Origin: a virus
Taxonomy: Duplodnaviria > Heunggongvirae > Uroviricota > Caudoviricetes
Direction: 5' to 3' (one strand)
DNA length: 46,124 nt
Virus record (IMG/VR): IMGVR_UViG_2547132255_000002
Below the pieces are notes generated by a model that saw only the letters and a program-made list of their open reading frames with translations, made no database searches and was not told where the DNA came from. Positions 1,419 to 46,124 of this stretch are shown here, one piece after another. Position 1 is the first letter of the stretch. Each line of letters opens with the position of its first letter. A program made the position numbers and the translations under genes.

Positions 1419-2489
1419 TTATTTGATTTCAATTTTGTCCCACTCCCTGCCTCTGTCATCACGATACTGTGATGCCATGGTGTCCGACTTATGCCCGAGA
1501 AGATGTTGAGCAAACTTATCGCTTATCTGCTTCTCATAGAGTCTTGCAGACAAACTGCGCAACTCGTGAAAGGTTGGCGGATCCCCTTCGAAGGAAAGAC
1601 CTGATGCTTTTCGTGCGCGCATAAAATACCTTGATACTGTGCCGGATGAAAGCGGTTCACGACGAGTAGATGCAATTATGGTTTCTCCGCCAAGAATCTC
1701 TTTGCATTTATCAAGTGTTTCCTTCATTGATATCCCGAGAGCATCAACATGCAATGCTGTTGGGATGGCAATTTTTACGCCTGTTTTGCTTTGCTCGACA
1801 TAAAGATATCCATCTACGATATCAGACCACTTCATTTCGCATAAATCACCAACTCGTTGCCCGGTAACAACAGCCAGTTCCATTGCAAGTCTTAGCCAAT
1901 ATGGTGATGATTCTGCTGCTTGATAAATTTTCAGGTATTCGTCAGCCGTAAGTCTTGATCTCCTTACCTCTGATTTTGCTGCGCGAGTGGCAGCGACCGG
2001 GTTTGTTGTTATATGGCCTTCAGCTATTGCCTCTCGGAATGCATCGCTCAGTGTTGATCTGATTAACTTGGCTGACGCAGCCTTGCCCTCGTCTATGTAT
2101 CCATTGAGCATTGCCGCAATTTCTTTTGTGGTGATGTCTTCAAGTGGAGCATCAGGCAGACCCCTCCTTATTGCTTTAATTTTGCTCATGTAATTTATGA
2201 GAGTCTTCTGCTTGATTCCTCTGCTGGCGAGGATTTTTTCGTAGCGATCAAGCCATGAATGTAACGTAACAGAATTATCACTGTTGATTCTCGCTGTCAG
2301 AGGCTTGTGTTTGTGTCCTGAAAATAACTCAATGTTGGCCTGTATAGCTTCAGTGATTGCGATTCGCCTGTCTCGGCCTAATCCAAACTCTTTACCCGTC
2401 CTTGGGTCCCTGTAGCAGTAATATCCATTGTTTCTTATATAAAGGTTAGGGGGTAAATCCCGGCGCTCATGACTTCGCCTTCTTCCCAT
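1419..2489 (-). CDS. int: Tyrosine integrase, lambda Int
   Basis: 356-aa product MGRRRSHERRDLPPNLYIRNNGYYCYRDPRTGKEF... matches recalled lambda Int over its full length. Confidence 0.97.
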   Translation of the reverse strand: MGRRRSHERRDLPPNLYIRNNGYYCYRDPRTGKEFGLGRDRRIAITEAIQANIELFSGHKHKPLTARINSDNSVTLHSWLDRYEKILASRGIKQKTLINYMSKIKAIRRGLPDAPLEDITTKEIAAMLNGYIDEGKAASAKLIRSTLSDAFREAIAEGHITTNPVAATRAAKSEVRRSRLTADEYLKIYQAAESSPYWLRLAMELAVVTGQRVGDLCEMKWSDIVDGYLYVEQSKTGVKIAIPTALHVDALGISMKETLDKCKEILGGETIIASTRREPLSSGTVSRYFMRARKASGLSFEGDPPTFHELRSLSARLYEKQISDKFAQHLLGHKSDTMASQYRDDRGREWDKIEIK

Positions 2490-11064: not shown

Positions 11065-12011
11065 ATGAGCAATACAGCAAAAATCTACGATTTCAGCGCC
11101 GCACACGAGCGCAGGAGCAACAGGATGGAGAACCAGAAAACTGGTTACATTCCGTTGTACCGGAGCATTCTGAAACAGTCATGGGCGAAAGATGTTTATC
11201 TTCGCACCCTGTGGGAAAACCTTCTCCTGAATGCCGCCAGAAAGCCATACAAAGCGAATTTCAAAGGTCATGAATGGCATCTGCAACCCGGTCAACTGGT
11301 TGTGACAGCAGCTGATTTAGGTCTTCAGTTATGCGACAGGCATGGCAAGCCGGCAAGCCGTGATCAGGTTGAGCGGATGCTTCAGGTTTTTGTGAAAGAG
11401 GGGATGATCTCCATTGATGGAGAGAAGCAAAAAGGTCGTGTGATCACCATCACAAATTACCATGAATATGCTCAAAAAATGGACGATTCACCCGCACATG
11501 AAGCCGCACAAACAACCGCACATGATGCCGCACATGATGAAGCCAGTAATGGCGCGGCATTCAGCGTACATGCCGCACATGAAAGCGCACATGAAGCCGC
11601 ACAAACAACCGCACATCATGAACAAGAAGGTATTAACAAGAATATAAATAATACCCCCTACCCCCCAATGGGGGAGGCGATGGGCAGGTTAAACCTGAAC
11701 GTCGCAAGGCAGAACGCATCGACTACGAATCCTTCCTGAACGCCTACAACACCGAAGTCGGTGACAGACTTCCACACGCTGTTGCGGTCAACGAGAAACG
11801 CAAACGCCGCCTGAAGAAAATCATCCCGCAACTGAAAACGCCAAACGTGGACGGTTTCAGAGCGTATGTCAGGGCGTTTGTGCATCAGGCCAAGCCGTTT
11901 TACTTCGGAGACAACGACACGGGCTGGACGGCAGATTTTGATTACCTGCTGAGGGAAGATTCGTTAACGGGAGTTCGGGAAGGGAAGTTTGCAGACAGGG
12001 GGATTGCATGA
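11065..12011 (+). pseudogene. Replication initiator (lambda O / P22 gp18-like), frame interrupted by an apparent 1-nt deletion near 11654-11674
   Basis: Frame-1 ORF 11065-11739 carries the N-terminal domain and the iterons; a start-less frame-3 ORF 11652-12011 carries a C-terminal domain ending in ATGA overlap with the helicase start. Confidence 0.6.
11491..11620. repeat. Origin iterons (about six copies of CCGCACATGA) inside the initiator gene, followed by an AT-rich tract
   Basis: Direct repeats at about 11492, 11516, 11528, 11571, 11586, 11609; AT-rich 11621-11653; lambda-ori-like architecture. Confidence 0.75.
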
Positions 12012-31609: not shown

Positions 31610-33563
<1,954 letters not shown>

Positions 33564-37965: not shown

Positions 37966-38952
37966 ATGACAGAAAAGAAAAGTAGTGAAGGGAAAGCTAA
38001 GGGCGGGATCGCTCGCGCAAAGTCGCTGACTAAAGAGCAGCGTTCTGAAATAGCAAAGAAAGCAGCGGCAAAACGATGGGAAGGTAAGCCACTAAGAGCG
38101 ATTAGAAAGGGTAACTTCATTGATGATTTCGGCATTGATGCAGAATGTTACGTACTTGATGATAATGATAAAACGGTTGTAGTTAGTAAAACTGGTCTGG
38201 CTAAATTACTAGGAATCGGTGAGCATGGTAGGGATGTAGACCGTTTTCTAAATACGAATTATATGGCTGATTTTGTCGATCCATTTTTGCTAGAAAAATT
38301 CAAAAAACCTCTTATTTTTCAATGGAGAAGTCCGGTCCCAAACTCAGCCCCAAATCCACTCGCTGATGAGGCTCACGGTTACGATATTGCCCTTATCGGT
38401 GATATAGCCACAGCAATGATTAATGCCGATCGAGCTGGCGCTCTACCGCCTTCAAGATCAAAATCTGCCAGCCTTGCCCAAAGACTTGTTACCGCATCAA
38501 TGAAAGCAGGGCTTAAAGGACTTGGTTATGCTATTGCAGGATATCGACCTGAAGTACAGGAGGTTATTGATTCCTTCAAGGCCTTTGTTCGTGAAGAGGC
38601 GAGGCAGTATGAAAAAGAATTTCCAGATGAGCTATATGAGGAGTGGTATCGACTGTACGGCCTGAACAGGCCAGAGAAGGGACGTCCAATTCGTTTTGGG
38701 CAGCTAACCAACATGCAGATATACACTCCGCTAGCAAAGAGTAAAGGTAAAATCCTTGAACAGATTCGAGCCAGCCGAGACGAGAACGGAAAACAATCTG
38801 ATAAGTTGCACCTGTTCCTTTCTGAAATTGGTGTCAAGGCTTTGCGTCAGCATATCGGTAAGCTTCTTGGTGTCGCAGCGATGAGCGAGACAAGAGAAGA
38901 ATACGAAAAAGGAATAGAAAAGGTTTTTGGAAGAATAAAACCAGAAATCTAA
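37966..38952 (+). CDS. Hypothetical protein (possibly P63C-like) in the sieA-equivalent slot
   Basis: 328 aa; basic N-terminus KGGIARAKSLTKEQRSEIAKKAAAKRW; family assignment is a weak recollection. Confidence 0.55.
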   Translation: MTEKKSSEGKAKGGIARAKSLTKEQRSEIAKKAAAKRWEGKPLRAIRKGNFIDDFGIDAECYVLDDNDKTVVVSKTGLAKLLGIGEHGRDVDRFLNTNYMADFVDPFLLEKFKKPLIFQWRSPVPNSAPNPLADEAHGYDIALIGDIATAMINADRAGALPPSRSKSASLAQRLVTASMKAGLKGLGYAIAGYRPEVQEVIDSFKAFVREEARQYEKEFPDELYEEWYRLYGLNRPEKGRPIRFGQLTNMQIYTPLAKSKGKILEQIRASRDENGKQSDKLHLFLSEIGVKALRQHIGKLLGVAAMSETREEYEKGIEKVFGRIKPEI

Positions 38953-38967
38953 TTAAAAAACCCACCT

Positions 38968-39222
38968 TCAGGTGGGTTTTTTATCTTCTCCGTACATGCT
39001 GCTGAGAGTCTTTAGAAGAGCCTCCCTAAATTTTTCAGATTCTTGTTGAGCAAAACCTTCTATTGTTCTTGGTGATTTTTCTTCATCAATAGCAGCTTGC
39101 AAGATCATAACTATTTCTGAATTTAATGAGCGTCCGTTTTTCGATGCTCTTATGGTCAGGTCGCGCTTGAGGCTATCTGGCATTCTTACGCTATATGGGG
39201 CTATGTCTCTAACCTTCGTCAT
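38968..39222 (-). CDS. mnt: Mnt-like ribbon-helix-helix repressor
   Basis: 84 aa; RMPDSLKRDLTIRASKNGRSLNSEIVMILQ resembles P22 Mnt (RMPMEVREKLKFRAEANGRSMNSELLQIV). Confidence 0.8.
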   Translation of the reverse strand: MTKVRDIAPYSVRMPDSLKRDLTIRASKNGRSLNSEIVMILQAAIDEEKSPRTIEGFAQQESEKFREALLKTLSSMYGEDKKPT

Positions 39223-39331
39223 ACTTACACCGTGATAATCACATTGATATCACAGTGTATTCAAAAAAATTTTGACTTGATATACTCACGGTGATATGTT
39301 TGTGATTCACAATAACTCACGTGGTGGCAAT
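39223..39331. promoter_or_regulatory. Divergent mnt/arc promoter-operator region
   Basis: Palindromic elements GTGATAATCAC, TGATATCA, GGTGATATG, GTGATTCAC; TTGACT -35-like hexamer. Confidence 0.55.
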
Positions 39332-39484
39332 ATGGAAAAAGAAGTTAGCAGAATTTTGGTGAGAATGCCTCAGTCGCTAAAAGATGCGATTACTGGAAAG
39401 GCCAAAGAAGAATGCCGGTCGTTTAACTCGGAAGTGATTAAGCGATTGCTGGACAGCCTGAAGAGAGAGGGGGTAGTGGTATGA
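39332..39484 (+). CDS. arc: Arc-like ribbon-helix-helix repressor
   Basis: 50 aa MEKEVSRILVRMPQSLKDAITGKAKEECRSFNSEVIKRLL, RHH beta-strand motif as in P22 Arc. Confidence 0.75.
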   Translation: MEKEVSRILVRMPQSLKDAITGKAKEECRSFNSEVIKRLLDSLKREGVVV

Positions 39485-39672
39485 AAAACCGCAGATGTTG
39501 TTTTTGTGGGTGTAGTAAAGAAACGACTGGCAGGGGCTTTGTTGTGTCAAAAAATACCGAAGAAGCAATTTGTGACTCATGCGTTACAGATATTGTTATT
39601 TTCATGCATGGCGAGAAGGGGTTAGATGAAAAGCTAGAGAGTATTCCAGTTGAAGGCGCTGATAAAAGTTGA
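39481..39672 (+). CDS. Small Cys-rich protein (putative zinc ribbon)
   Basis: 63 aa with CCFCGC...CDSC; start overlaps arc stop (ATGA). Confidence 0.5.
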   Translation: MKNRRCCFCGCSKETTGRGFVVSKNTEEAICDSCVTDIVIFMHGEKGLDEKLESIPVEGADKS

Positions 39673-39734
39673 AGCCCCAACTGCTGTAACAGTCAGGGCT
39701 TCGGTTGTCGGTAAATCCTTGGAGAAAAACCAAC

Positions 39735-40637
39735 ATGAATAGTATAGCAATTTTAGAAGCAGTGAACACCTCTTACGTGCCTTTCAATGGTCAGCAGATT
39801 TTAACCGCTGTGGCTGCCGGAGTGACTTATGTAGCGATGCGTCAAATTGTGGAAAACATTGGTATAGACTGGACTGGTCAATCTGTTAAGTTGCGTAAAA
39901 TGAAGGACAAATTCAACTGTAGAGATATCTCTATGGTTGCCGCTGATGGCAAGTTACGTAAGCTTTTATGCATACCGCTGAAGAAACTCAATGGATGGCT
40001 GTTCAGCATCAACCCTGAGAAAGTTCGTGCTGACATCCGTGATAAACTGATTCAGTACCAGGAGGAATGCTTTAGCGTGCTGCATGACTACTGGACGAAG
40101 GGAAAGGCAGAAAATGCACGTAAGAAAACATCTGTTGATGACAGGACTCCGCTTCGTGATGCTGTAAATATGCTAGTCAGCAAAAAGCATCTAATGTACC
40201 CAGAAGCTTATGCAATGATTCATCAGCGTTTCAACGTGGAAAGTATTGAAGAGCTTGATGCATCTCAGATACCGCAAGCCGTAGAGTACATCCACAGGGT
40301 AGTGCTTGAAGGTGAATTCATCGGCAAACAAGAGAAGAAAGCAAACGAGCTTTCTGCAAAAGAAGCAAACAGTCTTGTATGGTTATGGGATTATGCCAAC
40401 CGCTCACAGGCATTATTCCGCGAACTGTATCCGGCGCTAAAACAAATTCAATCGAACTATTCCGGCAGATGCTACGACTACGGTCATGAGTTCTCGTATG
40501 TTATCGGAATGGCGAGAGATGTTTTAATTAATCACACACGAGATGTTGATATCAATGAGCCAGACGGACCAACGAATCTTTCCGCATGGATGAGACTTAA
40601 GAATAAAGAATTACCTCCTTCAGTACATAACTACTGA
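39735..40637 (+). CDS. ant: Antirepressor Ant-like protein
   Basis: ~300 aa after arc, as in P22 immI; ATG 39735 has a GGAG RBS (ORF opens at TTG 39705). Confidence 0.7.
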
Positions 40638-40656
40638 CAGATAACCAACGCAACGA

Positions 40657-40679
40657 CCCAGCTTCGGCTGGGTTTTTTT
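40657..40679 (+). terminator. Intrinsic terminator after ant
   Basis: CCCAGC-ttcg-GCTGGG hairpin followed by TTTTTTTA. Confidence 0.8.
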
Positions 40680-40737
40680 ATGCCCAAAATTCACCGTAGC
40701 CATGCTGCGGCGATTCCTTGCATCTGGAGCAAATTAA

Positions 40738-43683
40738 ATGACAGACATTACAGCCAATGTTGTGGTAAGCATGCCTTCGCAACTCTTCACTATGGCGCGT
40801 TCTTTTAAAGCCGTAGCCAATGGCAAAATTTATATCGGTAAAATTGACACTGACCCGGTAAATCCTGAAAACCAGATTCAGGTTTATGTGGAGAACGAAG
40901 ACGGTTCTCACATTCCTGTTTCGCAACCAATAATGATTAACGCTGCTGGATATCCGGTATATAACGGACAGATTGCCAAATTCGTAACCGTGCAAGGCCA
41001 TTCTATGGCTGTTTATGATGCGTATGGTACACAGCAGTTCTATTTTCCTAATGTGCTGAAGTATGATCCTGATCAGTTACGGCAGCAATTAGAAGACCCA
41101 GATGGAGCGAATAAATACCCAAAACTTCAGATAGCAAGATGGAGAGACAGTTATGATGTAAGAGGTTGGGGGGCTATTGGTGATGGTGTTCATGATGATA
41201 CATCAGCTCTATCAGAATTACTTTCTGTTGCAACAGGTGGTGAAAAGATAGATGGGCGAGGGCTTACTTTTAAAGTATCAACTCTTCCAGATGTCAGTCG
41301 ATTTAAAAATGCTCGTTTTTTATTTGAGAGAATACCGGGTCAGCCTCTTTTTTATGCTTCTGAAGATTTTATCCAGGGAGAGTTATTTAAAATTACAGAT
41401 ACACCGTGGTACAACGCCTGGACGCAGGATAAAACGTTTGTATATGACAATGTCATCTATGCGCCTTTTATGGCTGGAGACCGCCATGGTGTAAATAACC
41501 TCCATGTTGCATGGGTTCGCTCAGGAGATGACGGGAAGACCTGGACAACGCCGGAATGGCTTACAGATTTACATGAAAACTATCCCACAGTTAACTATCA
41601 CTGCATGAGTATGGGGGTTGTCAGAAATCGCCTTTTTGCTGTAATTGAGACGCGGACCGTGAGCGGAAATAAACTGCAGGTTGCAGAGTTGTGGGATCGC
41701 CCAATGAGTCGCAGCCTTCGCGTTTATGGTGGTATAACGAAAGCAGCAAATCAGCAAGTCGCTTATATTCGCATTACTGATCACGGATTATTTGCTGGTG
41801 ATTTTGTCAACTTCTCAAACTCTGGTGTTACAGGTGTTACCGGGAATATGACGGTGACTACTGTTATTGATAAAAATACTTTTACAGTTACGACGCAAAA
41901 TACCCAGGATGTGGATCAGAATAACGAGGGTAGATACTGGAGTTTTGGTACATCATTTCACTCGTCACCATGGAGAAAAACCAGTCTTGGAACTATTCCT
42001 TCTTTTGTTGACGGAAGCACTCCTGTTACTGAGATTCATAGTTTTGCGACGATTAGCGATAACAGTTTTGCTGTTGGCTACCATAATGGTGATATTGATC
42101 CACGTGAGCTTGGGATACTCTATTTCTCTGATGCTTTCGGTTCTCCTGGTAGCTTTGTTCGCAGACGCATACCTGCAGAATATGAGGCGAATGCATCTGA
42201 GCCATGTGTAAAATATTATGATGGCATTCTGTATCTGACGACCAGGGGGACATTAAGTACTCAACCCGGTAGTTCATTGCACAGAAGCTCTGATTTAGGT
42301 ACATCATGGAATTCTCTTCGCTTCCCAAATAATGTTCATCACTCAAACCTTCCTTTTGCCAAAGTTGGCGATGAGCTGATTATTTTTGGCAGTGAGCGCG
42401 CATTTGGTGAGTGGGAAGGAGGAGAACCTGATAACCGTTATGCAGGAAATTATCCAAGAACATTTATGACCAGAGTTAACGTCAATGAGTGGAGTCTGGA
42501 TAATGTAGAGTGGGTTAATGTTACTGATCAGATTTATCAGGGCGGAATAGTTAACTCTGCGGTTGGTGTTGGTTCAGTTTGTATCAAAGACAACTGGCTG
42601 TACTACATTTTCGGTGGGGAAGACTTTCTAAACCCATGGAGCATAGGGGATAACAACAGAAAATATCCTTATGTTCACGATGGTCACCCGGCTGATTTGT
42701 ATTGTTTCAGGGTGAAAATTAAACAGGAAGAATTTGTTTCAAGGGATTTTGTCTACGGAGCCACTCCTAACAGAACGCTTCCTACTTTTATGTCGACGTC
42801 AGGCGTGAGGACGGTTCCTGTACCCGTTGATTTCACAGATGATGTTGCCGTCCAGTCACTGACTGTCCATGCAGGTACATCAGGACAAGTTCGCGCGGAA
42901 GTCAAACTTGAGGGTAATTACGCCATTATTGCGAAGAAAGTACCGTCTGATGATGTTACCGCTCAGAGATTAATCGTTAGCGGAGGTGAAACAACGTCTT
43001 CAGCAGATGGTGCAATGATAACGTTGCATGGTTCCGGAAGCAGTACTCCACGTCGCGCGGTATATAACGCACTCGAACATCTTTTTGAGAACGGAGATGT
43101 TAAACCTTATCTTGATAATGTAAATGCTCTTGGTGGTCCGGGAAACAGGTTCTCGACAGTTTATCTTGGCTCCAATCCTGTGGTTACCAGTGACGGAACA
43201 TTAAAGACAGAGCCGGTCTCTCCTGACGAAGCATTGCTGGATGCCTGGGGTGACGTCAGGTATATCGCTTATAAATGGCTGAACGCTGTCGCTATAAAGG
43301 GGGAAGAAGGGGCGAGGATACATCATGGTGTAATCGCGCAGCAACTTCGTGATGTTCTTATTTCTCACGGACTCATGGAAGAAGAAAGCACAACATGCCG
43401 CTATGCCTTTCTTTGCTATGACGATTATCCCGCAGTATATGATGACGTCATTACTGGCCAAAGGGAAATGCCGCTGACTGATAATGACGGGAGCATCATT
43501 GTTGATGAGGATGATAATCCAGTGATGGTAATGGAAGACATCATTGAGCGCGTTGAAATAACGCCAGCAGGATCTAGATGGGGGGTCAGACCTGATCTCT
43601 TATTCTATATCGAGGCAGCATGGCAGCGCAGAGAAATAGAAAGAATAAAAGCTAGGTTAGACTTAATAGAAGGGAAGCACTAA
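40738..43683 (+). CDS. Tailspike: P22 gp9-like head-binding domain, endosialidase-like receptor domain, C-terminal intramolecular chaperone
   Basis: N-terminal ~115 aa ([43 protein letters not shown]...) match P22 gp9; two Asp-boxes SGDDGKTW and SSDLGTSW; ~160-aa C-terminal tail after a TSD site. Confidence 0.8.
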
Positions 43684-43829
43684 ATGTTTCGTTGGCGTCA
43701 AAAATATGAACTGCTCACATAAAGAAGTAAGCACATTGGCAAAAAACATTGACGTCAACGAAATTAAATATAAAACATCATGCAGACATATTACCAATAT
43801 TAATATAAGGTAATAAAAATATAATTTAC

Positions 43830-43855
43830 AAAAAAGCCCGTTGGAAGCGACGGGC
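43830..43855 (-). terminator. Putative intrinsic terminator for leftward transcription (tI-like)
   Basis: GCCCGTCGCTTCCAACGGGC hairpin followed on the minus strand by TTTTTTGT. Confidence 0.5.
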
Positions 43856-44122
43856 ATTAACCGCGGTAATGGATAAATTATTAATGTTTTTAGATTGTGA
43901 ACGATATCATATTGTGCGGAAGTAGTGAAGTAACCATGTAAAATGATTGTTTCATAGCCTATGAGACACACAAGGCTTTGTGCTCTTCGATAGTTGTTAA
44001 GGCGGATCACTCCACCTTTTCATCAAGCCAGTCAGCCCACCACTGCATCATTTCTCTGCGCTTATCGAGATACTGAGCATGGTTGTAAATTCAGCAAACG
44101 ACGTAATGTGTTTGACAAAAAA

Positions 44123-44157
44123 TTAGCGCAAGAAGACAAAAAATCACCTTGCGCTAA
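44123..44157. promoter_or_regulatory. sib-like inverted repeat next to the P arm
   Basis: TTAGCGCAAG-N15-CTTGCGCTAA, 10-bp perfect stem, located where lambda sib sits relative to attP. Confidence 0.4.
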
Positions 44158-44303
44158 TGCTCTGTTACAGGTCACTAATACCATCTAAGTGGTTGATTCA
44201 TAGTGACTGGATATGTTGTGTTTTGTAGCATTGTGCAGTATATTTTTTAGACTAAAAATATTGTAATGCATTGATATTAATGGTTTTTAATGTTTCACGT
44301 TCA
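44158..44303. promoter_or_regulatory. attP P arm
   Basis: gctctgttacaggtcactaataccatctaagt...gttcag matches recalled lambda P arm with scattered substitutions. Confidence 0.75.
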
Positions 44304-44318
44304 GCTTTTTTATACTAA
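44304..44318. other. attR common core (P-O-B' junction)
   Basis: GCTTTTTTATACTAA followed by host B' sequence cttgagcgaaacgggaaggtaaaaag. Confidence 0.9.
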
Positions 44319-44408
44319 CTTGAGCGAAACGGGAAGGTAAAAAGACAAAAAGTTGTTTTTAATACCTTTAAGTGATACCAGATGGCATTGCGCCATCTGG
44401 CAGAGTGA

Positions 44409-44885
44409 TTAACTAAACATCGCAGTAATCGAGGCACTCGCCAGAGAGTGAAAATGAACGTTAAACCCGACCATCGCGCCGCTGGCACCTTCATCGACAT
44501 CAATACGTTCTACATCCAGCGCGTGAACGGTAAAAATGTAGCGATGGGTTTCGCCTTTCGGCGGCGCTGCGCCATCGTACCCGGTTTTACCAAAGTCGGT
44601 ACGCGTCTGCAAAACGCCGTCTGGCATAGCTACCAGACCAGAGCCAAACCCTTGCGGTAATACGCGGGTATCAGCGGGTAAATTAACAACTACCCAGTGC
44701 CACCAGCCGGAGCCGGTTGGCGCATCCGGGTCATAGCAGGTGACAACAAAACTTTTCGTTCCCGCAGGAACATCATCCCACGCCAGATGCGGTGAAATAT
44801 TATCGCCATCGTAACCCATGCCGTTAAAGACATGACGATGCGGCAGCTTATCGCCATCGCGCAGATCGTTACTGATGAGTTTCAT
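44409..44885 (-). CDS. ybhB: Host PEBP-family protein YbhB
   Basis: 158-aa ORF adjacent to attR on the bio side of lambda attB; PEBP-like motifs (DPDAP, HRY). Confidence 0.75.
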   Translation of the reverse strand: MKLISNDLRDGDKLPHRHVFNGMGYDGDNISPHLAWDDVPAGTKSFVVTCYDPDAPTGSGWWHWVVVNLPADTRVLPQGFGSGLVAMPDGVLQTRTDFGKTGYDGAAPPKGETHRYIFTVHALDVERIDVDEGASGAMVGFNVHFHSLASASITAMFS

Positions 44886-44993
44886 TAGAATGCCTCCGGG
44901 AAACCTCGGCCTTCAGACCGGGGAGGAAAGGAGGCGGTTTTCCGACTAACTGTACTTTGCATAATCACATTTTCCTCTTTAGTATGTGAACAC

Positions 44994-46124
44994 ATGAAAC
45001 GCGCATATAAATACCGGTTTTACCCGACAACTGAGCAGGCTGAGCTTTTAGCTCAGACGTTTGGCTGTGTGCGCTTCGTCTACAATTCCATCCTTCGTTG
45101 GCGTACCGATGCGTACTACGAGCGAAAAGAAAAGATCGGTTATCTACAGGCCAACGCTCGCCTTACGGCGCTCAAAAAAGAGCCTGAATACATATGGCTG
45201 AATGATGTTTCCTGCGTTCCCCTCCAGCAGTCGTTGCGCCACCAACAAGCCGCCTTTGCTAACTTCTTTGCCGGACGAGCTGCATATCCGGCTTTCAAAA
45301 GCAAACGGCACAAACAGGTGGCTGAGTTCACTGCCAGCGCGTTTAAACACCGTGACGGCGAGTTGTATATAGCAAAGAGCAAGTCGCCGCTGGATGTTCG
45401 CTGGAGTCGAGAATTACCATCTGCGCCGTCAACCGTTACCATTTCCAGAGATAGCGCTGGCAGGTACTTTGTTTCCTGCCTGTGTGAGTTTGAACCTGTA
45501 TCAATGCCTGTTACCGCTAAAACGGTCGGCATTGATGTGGGCTTAAAAGATTTATTCGTCACCGATACCGGATTCAAAACCGACAATCCCCGCCACACCG
45601 CTAAATATGCGAAGCGATTAACGCTGCTACAGCGACGTTTAAGCAGGAAGCAAAAAGGCTCAAGAAACCGAATTAAAGCCCGCTTAAAGGTCGCCCGACT
45701 CCACGCGAAAATCGCCGATTGCCGGATGGACAATCTGCACAAGTTGTCCCGCAAACTGATTAACGAAAACCAAGTTGTTTGCGTCGAATCCCTCAAGGTG
45801 AAAAACATGATCCGCAACCCGAAGCTGTCTAAAGCAATAGCTGACGCAGGCTGGAGCGAACTTGTTCGCCAGCTCCAGTACAAAGGCAAATGGGCCGGGC
45901 GGTCAGTGGTCGCCATTGACCAGTATTTACCGTCCTCAAAATGCTGTAGTTGCTGCGGTTTCACCATGCAAAAAATGCCTCTTAATGTTCGTAAATGGCA
46001 CTGCCCTGAATGCGGCGCAGACCATGATCGCGACATTAACGCGGCACGTAATATTAAAGCTGCCGGGCTGGCAGTGTTAGCCCACGGAGAGCCTGTAAAC
46101 CCTGAATCGCAGCACGCGGCTTAG
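44994..46124 (+). CDS. tnpB: IS200/IS605-family TnpB (OrfB) RuvC-like nuclease, no adjacent TnpA
   Basis: 376 aa; N-terminus MKRAYKYRFYPTTEQAELL typical of OrfB/TnpB; C-terminal zinc finger CCGFTMQKMPLNVRKWHCPECGADHDRDINAARNI. Confidence 0.8.
   Translation: MKRAYKYRFYPTTEQAELLAQTFGCVRFVYNSILRWRTDAYYERKEKIGYLQANARLTALKKEPEYIWLNDVSCVPLQQSLRHQQAAFANFFAGRAAYPAFKSKRHKQVAEFTASAFKHRDGELYIAKSKSPLDVRWSRELPSAPSTVTISRDSAGRYFVSCLCEFEPVSMPVTAKTVGIDVGLKDLFVTDTGFKTDNPRHTAKYAKRLTLLQRRLSRKQKGSRNRIKARLKVARLHAKIADCRMDNLHKLSRKLINENQVVCVESLKVKNMIRNPKLSKAIADAGWSELVRQLQYKGKWAGRSVVAIDQYLPSSKCCSCCGFTMQKMPLNVRKWHCPECGADHDRDINAARNIKAAGLAVLAHGEPVNPESQHAA

Follow-up and report, generated by a model that had tools for sequence, protein, structure and literature searches.

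The DNA analysed here, a stretch of 46,124 nt from an IMG/VR virus record (IMGVR_UViG_2547132255_000002) that is referred to below as the window, carries a P22-like genome in which the tailspike gene stands at the end of the late operon, after the genes for the ejection proteins and an immI/ant region (Table 1). The region 5' of the tailspike gene also contains a gene with a P63C domain (Pfam). In the list of open reading frames, the tailspike gene has the start, strand and end at which it was first read, and its frame is intact throughout its 981 codons, unlike the copies in some relatives. The copy in CE10 is annotated as frameshifted, and copies split by insertion sequences are present in other genomes.

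Two exact copies of GCTTTTTTATACTAA, which we take to be the lambda att core, are present in the window, compared with 0.01 expected by chance. Outside the left core lies ybhC (Pectinesterase family, 427 aa); outside the right core lie ybhB and a gene for an IS605-type TnpB, and in MS20659 bioA comes next.

Table 1. Features of the window, in order of position
Feature	Position (nt)	Strand	Details
attL core, GCTTTTTTATACTAA	1331..1345	+	exact; ybhC to the left, integrase to the right
Lambda-type integrase with arm-DNA-binding domain	1419..2489	-	PF00589 and PF09003
IS21-family insertion, istA and istB	31610..33563	-	1954 bp; Pfam rve and IstB_IS21; 5-bp GTACA target duplication
immI-type region 5' of tailspike	38968..40637	mixed	Pfam Arc, P22_AR_N, P22_AR_C
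Arc/Mnt gene (immI-type region)	38968-39222	-	
Arc gene (immI-type region)	39296-39484	+	
Antirepressor Ant gene (immI-type region)	39705-40637	+	
Endosialidase tailspike gene, orthologue of CUS-3 siaK1	40738..43683	+	ATG start; 981 aa and stop
P22-type head-binding (virion-attachment) domain	40738..41076	+	aa 1-113; PF09008
Linker from head-binding domain to endosialidase body	41077..41172	+	aa 114-145; no Pfam or PDB domain covers this stretch
Endosialidase N-terminal extension (End_N_terminal)	41173..41373	+	aa 146-212; PF12218, E=8.8e-37
Six-bladed beta-propeller catalytic domain (End_beta_propel)	41374..42723	+	aa 213-662; PF12217, E=3e-233
Asp-boxes in propeller	41521-41544 and 42286-42309	+	S-x-D-x-G-x-x-W motif
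Beta-barrel inserted in propeller (End_beta_barrel)	41707..41955	+	aa 324-406; PF12195, E=1.2e-46
Tailspike stalk domain (End_tail_spike)	42724..43188	+	aa 663-817; PF12219, E=7.5e-78
Intramolecular chaperone / self-cleaving domain	43189..43680	+	PF13884 Peptidase_S74 from aa 818, E=1.6e-10
Empty neuO site, one copy of TAAATATAAAA	43765..43775	+	same 11-mer flanks the neuO cassette in CUS-3 and CE10
Remnant of CUS-3 (argW-type) integrase	44007..44090	-	last 28 codons; 100% protein identity (tblastn)
attR core, GCTTTTTTATACTAA	44304..44318	+	exact copy of attL core

Domains and functional residues of the tailspike

A Pfam profile search finds six domains in the expected order in the 981-aa tailspike, all of them far over the curated cut-offs. 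At the N-terminus, aa 1-113 align to profile positions 1-113 of 113 of Head_binding (PF09008, E=1.6e-66). Among PDB structures, this domain matches Sf6 gp14 (7sg7, E=5e-67) and P22 gp9 (1lkt, 2vky and 8tvr, E=1e-46 to 1e-53); for aa 1-118, the matches to structures of these two proteins range overall from E=1e-44 to 1e-67. Identity over aa 1-113, counted from the alignments, is 92% with Sf6 gp14 and 75% with P22 gp9. The initial annotation had described this part of the protein as near-identical in pattern to P22 gp9. Its assignment to the P22 type holds, but at 75% identity the closeness to gp9 was put a little generously, and the closest version of the domain is that of Sf6 and CUS-3.

The remainder of the protein had been read as an endosialidase-like body, and it is a true endosialidase by its matches: five endosialidase Pfam domains lie far over their cut-offs (773.8 bits versus a cut-off of 24 for the propeller profile, and 157.1 bits versus 35 for that of the barrel), and aa 145-817 match structures of endoNF, the endosialidase of phage K1F (PDB 1v0e/3gvl), with E=0 and about 1050 bits. 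A non-sialidase fold as the best structural match had been named beforehand as the outcome that would speak against this reading; the best match is endoNF. Identity with endoNF, counted from the alignment, is 65.5% over 672 columns, and in the stalk the alignment extends to the last ordered residue of endoNF. The two sialidase Asp-boxes noticed at first, SGDDGKTW (aa 262-269) and SSDLGTSW (aa 517-524), are the sole matches to S.D.G..W in the protein.

Residue numbers of endoNF convert to those of the window tailspike by an offset of -100 before, and -93 after, a 7-residue insertion at about aa 424-430. The catalytic and binding residues H350, R549, E581, R596 and R647 of endoNF then correspond to H250, R456, E488, R503 and R554, all of which are identical, as are the second-shell residues (Q330, D331, H527, S528, K585 and N699 in endoNF). 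The roles of the propeller residues are taken from a K1F deep-mutational-scanning preprint (PMC12632334).

A segment of about 160 aa that follows a TSD site had been likened to the self-cleaving chaperone of endosialidases, and the comparisons agree with this. Peptidase_S74 begins at the serine of T817-S818-D819, after which 163 residues follow, and aa 698-979 match the C-terminal chaperone of endoNF (PDB 3gw6) with E=8e-95. Residues S818 and K823 correspond to S911 and K916 of endoNF; a Ser/Lys dyad of the chaperone, spaced i and i+5, has been described (PMC3742443). With this pair included, 13 of the 13 functional residues checked against endoNF are conserved. Since the Ser818/Lys823 pair is kept, the self-cleaving chaperone reading is supported, and release of the 163-aa C-terminal piece by self-cleavage is predicted.

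The prophage and its site without neuO

The prophage is a mosaic of the P22-like (Lederbergvirus) type, and it occupies the lambda attachment site, with ybhC on one side and ybhB on the other. Its structural genes match those of HK620, Sf6 and N7 at about 97%, and Lederbergvirus records also match, while for the early region the matches are 720R6, JEP4 and CUS-3. Coverage by any phage record is at most 51% for either half of the window. CUS-3 covers 31-40% of each half and is 91-97% identical in parts of both the early and the late region. Among the complete E. coli genomes in the collection, none covers 80% or more of window positions 39000-46124.

In CUS-3, neuO, which has 19 AAGACTC repeats, lies downstream of the tailspike gene, between it and the integrase gene. 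Two copies of TAAATATAAAA, 853 bp apart, flank the neuO cassette both in CUS-3 and in CE10, an E. coli O7:K1 strain; the window has a single copy. Window positions 43601-43775 align to CUS-3 just before neuO, and positions 43758-44090 align just after it. As the initial annotation had noted, neither neuO nor a heptanucleotide tract lies downstream of the tailspike gene: a pattern search with 2 mismatches and Tandem Repeats Finder at a low threshold find no AAGACTC tract in the window, and tblastn with the CE10 NeuO protein at E up to 10 finds no NeuO-like coding sequence there (best E=2.0). The neuO cassette is cleanly absent at the 11-bp repeat. Beyond the empty site lies the remnant of a CUS-3 integrase gene, which the annotations of MS20659 and CE10 give as an incomplete CDS. 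This remnant is the scar of the recombination that brought the tailspike module in, and it shows that the prophage acquired a CUS-3 tailspike module.

At this chromosomal site, CE10, ExPEC XM, PU-1 and IAI39 have neuO, and MS20659, 998, CUVET21-PYO5, 10035776-3 and about ten others are without it. Across complete genomes, the endosialidase module is found in 194 of 5426 and neuO in 161 of 5426; thus, at least 33 genomes have the tailspike without neuO, and the arrangement is not rare. Since the site is found both with neuO and without it, recombination may recur at the boundary of the cassette. A tentative extension, which we would put at somewhat below an even chance, is that neuO is a discrete 853-bp cassette gained and lost at the 11-bp TAAATATAAAA, and that the scarred CUS-3 tailspike module moved into a P22-like phage that integrates at the lambda att site. 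If this is true, K1 strains would have a lineage of endosialidase prophages that leaves the capsule without O-acetylation. With neuO absent, the prophage in the window is predicted to give no phase-variable O-acetylation of the capsule; O-acetylation has been connected with resistance both to phage and to killing by neutrophils (PMC13001214).

The IS21-family element in the late region splits a gene for a gene-7-type ejection protein; the same gene is contiguous and intact in 720R6. This type of ejection protein is essential for P22-like infection. Because the element splits its gene, the prophage is probably unable to make infectious particles. Its infectivity has thus probably been lost; the tailspike gene itself is intact. 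Given the insertion, the tailspike gene may have become a relic that is no longer expressed and on which selection is relaxed.

Activity, host capsule and alternative readings

Among phage records (megablast), the tailspike gene is 99.5% identical in DNA to that of vB_EcoP-720R6 (ON470605, URC09763.1) over 100% of its length, with 3 aa differences, 99.1% identical to CUS-3 siaK1 over 100%, and 99.4% identical to phage phiv205-1 over 93%. The CUS-3 SiaK1 protein (ABQ88383.1 / CAJ29292.1) is identical at 970 of 981 residues, with 11 differences and no indel; the tailspike of the MS20659 prophage (WP_187210376.1) differs from the window protein at 4 aa. None of the substitutions relative to CUS-3, 720R6 or MS20659 falls at a listed functional residue. 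GenBank describes CUS-3 siaK1 as "endosialidase tailspike protein" and credits it with endo-alpha-sialidase activity by direct assay (IDA, PMID 16689790). Cleavage of polysialic acid by the window tailspike is predicted from this annotated activity of a 99%-identical protein.

Taken as a whole, the locus is very probably best explained as a CUS-3-type endosialidase tailspike, acting by the mechanism inferred for such proteins, in the setting of a mosaic, neuO-less P22-like prophage. By homology to the P22 and Sf6 tailspikes and to endoNF, the protein would trimerise and, through its N-terminal 113 residues, attach to the tail of a P22-like podovirus. The stalk and the beta-propeller, into which the beta-barrel is inserted, would bind and cleave alpha-2,8-polysialic acid, the capsule of E. 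coli K1, and cleavage of the capsule would let the virion tunnel through to the outer membrane. During folding, the C-terminal 163 residues would serve as an intramolecular chaperone for the stalk, to be released by a cut after Ser818 through the Ser818/Lys823 pair.

Could the window instead be phage CUS-3 itself, integrated as a prophage? The tailspike genes are nearly the same, and the stretches of the early and late regions that are 91-97% identical point in this direction. However, the low coverage of each half of the window by CUS-3 does not fit, nor do the structural genes, which are closer to HK620 and Sf6. In addition, CUS-3 carries neuO beside the gene for a CUS-3-type integrase, while the window has no neuO, retains only 28 codons of that integrase, and carries a lambda-type integrase with att cores between ybhC and ybhB. 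These differences effectively rule this identity out. A defective prophage might also be expected to carry a decaying tailspike with no active enzyme, and the split ejection-protein gene is in keeping with this. Such decay is nevertheless unlikely in view of the intact frame, which contrasts with the broken copies in CE10 and elsewhere, and of a protein that lies 3-11 aa from the tailspikes of phage records with every functional residue checked still in place.

The CUS-3-type tailspike would act on the K1 capsule, and several observations bear on the host. Among complete genomes, the junction of tailspike, ybhB and TnpB genes is found only in MS20659, CUVET21-PYO5 and strain 998. The K1-type locus of MS20659 comprises kpsFEDUCS, genes for an alpha-2,8-polysialyltransferase, neuC, neuB, further neu genes, and ABC transporter genes; one gene of the locus is annotated as frameshifted. 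A search with a 3.5-kb probe across 5426 complete genomes finds K1 region 2 in 335 (6.2%). MS20659 and CUVET21-PYO5, but not strain 998, are among the 60 matches listed, as are S88, MS7163, PA45B, ATCC 11775, UPEC129, SF-468 and SF-088, which also have the tailspike. K1 hosts are named in 19 deposited records of CUS-3 siaK1. Since the two closest complete genomes checked carry K1 neu genes, the prediction of a K1 host is supported indirectly. The window itself holds no capsule genes, and the prediction that its source host was K1-encapsulated is well supported from these comparisons. Were the specificity different or shifted, for example towards O-acetylated polysialic acid or the K92 alpha-2,8/2,9 polymer, the host need not be K1; such a change might be sought in the 11 substitutions relative to CUS-3 or in the 7-residue insertion relative to endoNF. 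We consider this very unlikely: the CUS-3 protein is equally long and has no indel relative to the window protein, so the insertion is no peculiarity of this allele; the substitutions all lie outside the listed catalytic and binding residues; and the closest host genomes are K1. The CUS-3-type tailspike is a good marker of a source strain that is, or recently has been, K1-encapsulated. Strains of the K1 type form a group of extraintestinal pathogens that is associated with neonatal meningitis and urosepsis.

Relation to known tailspikes

Judged by its sequence, the tailspike is the already characterised, polysialic-acid-cutting protein of CUS-3 in a related P22-like prophage. As a known and named protein, it gains only modest additions here, all of them matters of context: the lambda att site, the absence of neuO, the integrase scar and the insertion sequence. 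By itself the finding matters little, since the protein had been characterised before and is a standard example of module exchange among tailspikes.

CUS-3 SiaK1 agrees with the window tailspike in length (981 aa), in the order of its domains, and in its position after ant at the end of the late operon. CUS-3 differs in having the neuO cassette and its own integrase 3' of the tailspike gene, both of which are missing from the window except for the 28-codon scar. The same neuO-less arrangement beside ybhB and the bio genes is present in 720R6 and in the MS20659 prophage, but the rest of 720R6 is only partly common to the window (34-41% coverage). The tail fibre of vB_EcoP_ZX5 (QTH80017.1) is 99.5% identical in DNA over gene positions 522-2914, which hold the catalytic and chaperone cassette; this phage has a different N-terminal adaptor and belongs to a different genus (Uetakevirus).

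The more distant relatives each share one portion of the protein. P22 gp9 and Sf6 gp14 have the N-terminal head-binding domain in common with the window tailspike, but the sequence likeness stops near aa 115-127; the P22 receptor domain is annotated as an endorhamnosidase, and the P22 and Sf6 receptor domains have been stated to differ completely from the endosialidase domain of CUS-3. Conversely, endoNF of K1F shares the propeller, barrel, stalk and chaperone, with all key residues kept, but is without the 7-residue insertion, and the K1F N-terminus is a T7-type adaptor rather than a P22-type head-binding domain (reviewed in PMC5380687). This chimeric architecture is already in the literature as a standard review example: the N-terminal domain is common to CUS-3, HK620, Sf6 and P22, the catalytic domain is common to CUS-3 and K1F, and the review cites Stummeyer 2006 for this as horizontal module exchange (PMC5380687).

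Boundaries of the tailspike module

In both CUS-3, an E. coli K1 phage that carries neuO 3' of its tailspike gene, and the O7:K1 strain CE10, the neuO cassette is bounded on each side by a copy of the 11-bp direct repeat TAAATATAAAA, whereas the window contains this sequence only once (see the table). This arrangement suggests that neuO has been gained or lost precisely at the repeat. Between the tailspike gene and attR, the right lambda att core, there is also a remnant of a CUS-3-type integrase gene. This remnant marks the join at which the CUS-3 tailspike module entered, by recombination, a phage whose integrase is of the lambda type.

Features of the window and of the compared loci
Feature	Location	Strand	Remarks
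TAAATATAAAA, CUS-3	L001 9028-9038, 9881-9891		two copies
TAAATATAAAA, CE10	L004 6501-6511, 7347-7357		two copies
TAAATATAAAA, window	43765-43775		single copy
CUS-3-type integrase remnant	window 44007-44090	-	last 28 codons, 100% protein identity
12-bp repeats, CCGCACATGAAG-like	window 11492-11616		two clusters, ~3.7 copies each
IS21-family element	window 31610-33563	-	1954 bp, istA + istB, 5-bp GTACA target duplication
istB	window 31679-32458	-	in IS21-family element
istA	window 32458-33477	-	in IS21-family element
P63C-domain protein gene	window 37966-38952		328 aa
IS605-type TnpB gene	window 44994-46124		RNA-guided endonuclease family; continues past window end
vB_EcoP_ZX5 locus	L007 1803-4922		catalytic + chaperone cassette

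Other genes of the prophage and its right flank

The IS21-family element splits a gene-7-type ejection protein gene, and the prophage is therefore probably defective. The P63C-domain gene is flanked by the last ejection-protein gene on one side and by the Arc/Mnt genes on the other; in P22-like phages this is a variable "ant moron" position. Both clusters of CCGCACATGAAG-like repeats fall within ORF 11065-11739; they are probably the iterons of a replication origin located inside an O-like replication gene. Beyond the prophage, the TnpB gene is situated between ybhB and bioA, and among the complete-genome matches listed, the window has the tailspike-ybhB-TnpB junction in common only with MS20659, CUVET21-PYO5, and strain 998.

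The tailspike module in other phages and genomes

In searches of an E. coli genome collection, some genomes had the endosialidase tailspike module more than once (2-4 copies); it is present, for example, at four places in ExPEC XM and at two in MS20659, an E. coli strain with a near-identical tailspike. Several of the copies are interrupted by an IS3 or IS66 element or carry a frameshift, as in CE10. In the K1 capsule locus of MS20659, the gene that occupies the neuE position (L006 11066-12215) carries a frameshift according to its annotation, which may reflect an error of sequencing or a true defect of the capsule; it is flanked by the polysialyltransferase gene on one side and neuC on the other.

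Positions 522-2914 of the tailspike gene share 99.5% DNA identity with the cassette of vB_EcoP_ZX5 (Uetakevirus, MW722083). Such identity across genera, together with unlike adaptors, points to a very recent exchange of the module between phage genera. The catalytic and chaperone cassette is common to vB_EcoP_ZX5 and the window tailspike, but the N-terminal adaptor and the phage genus differ.
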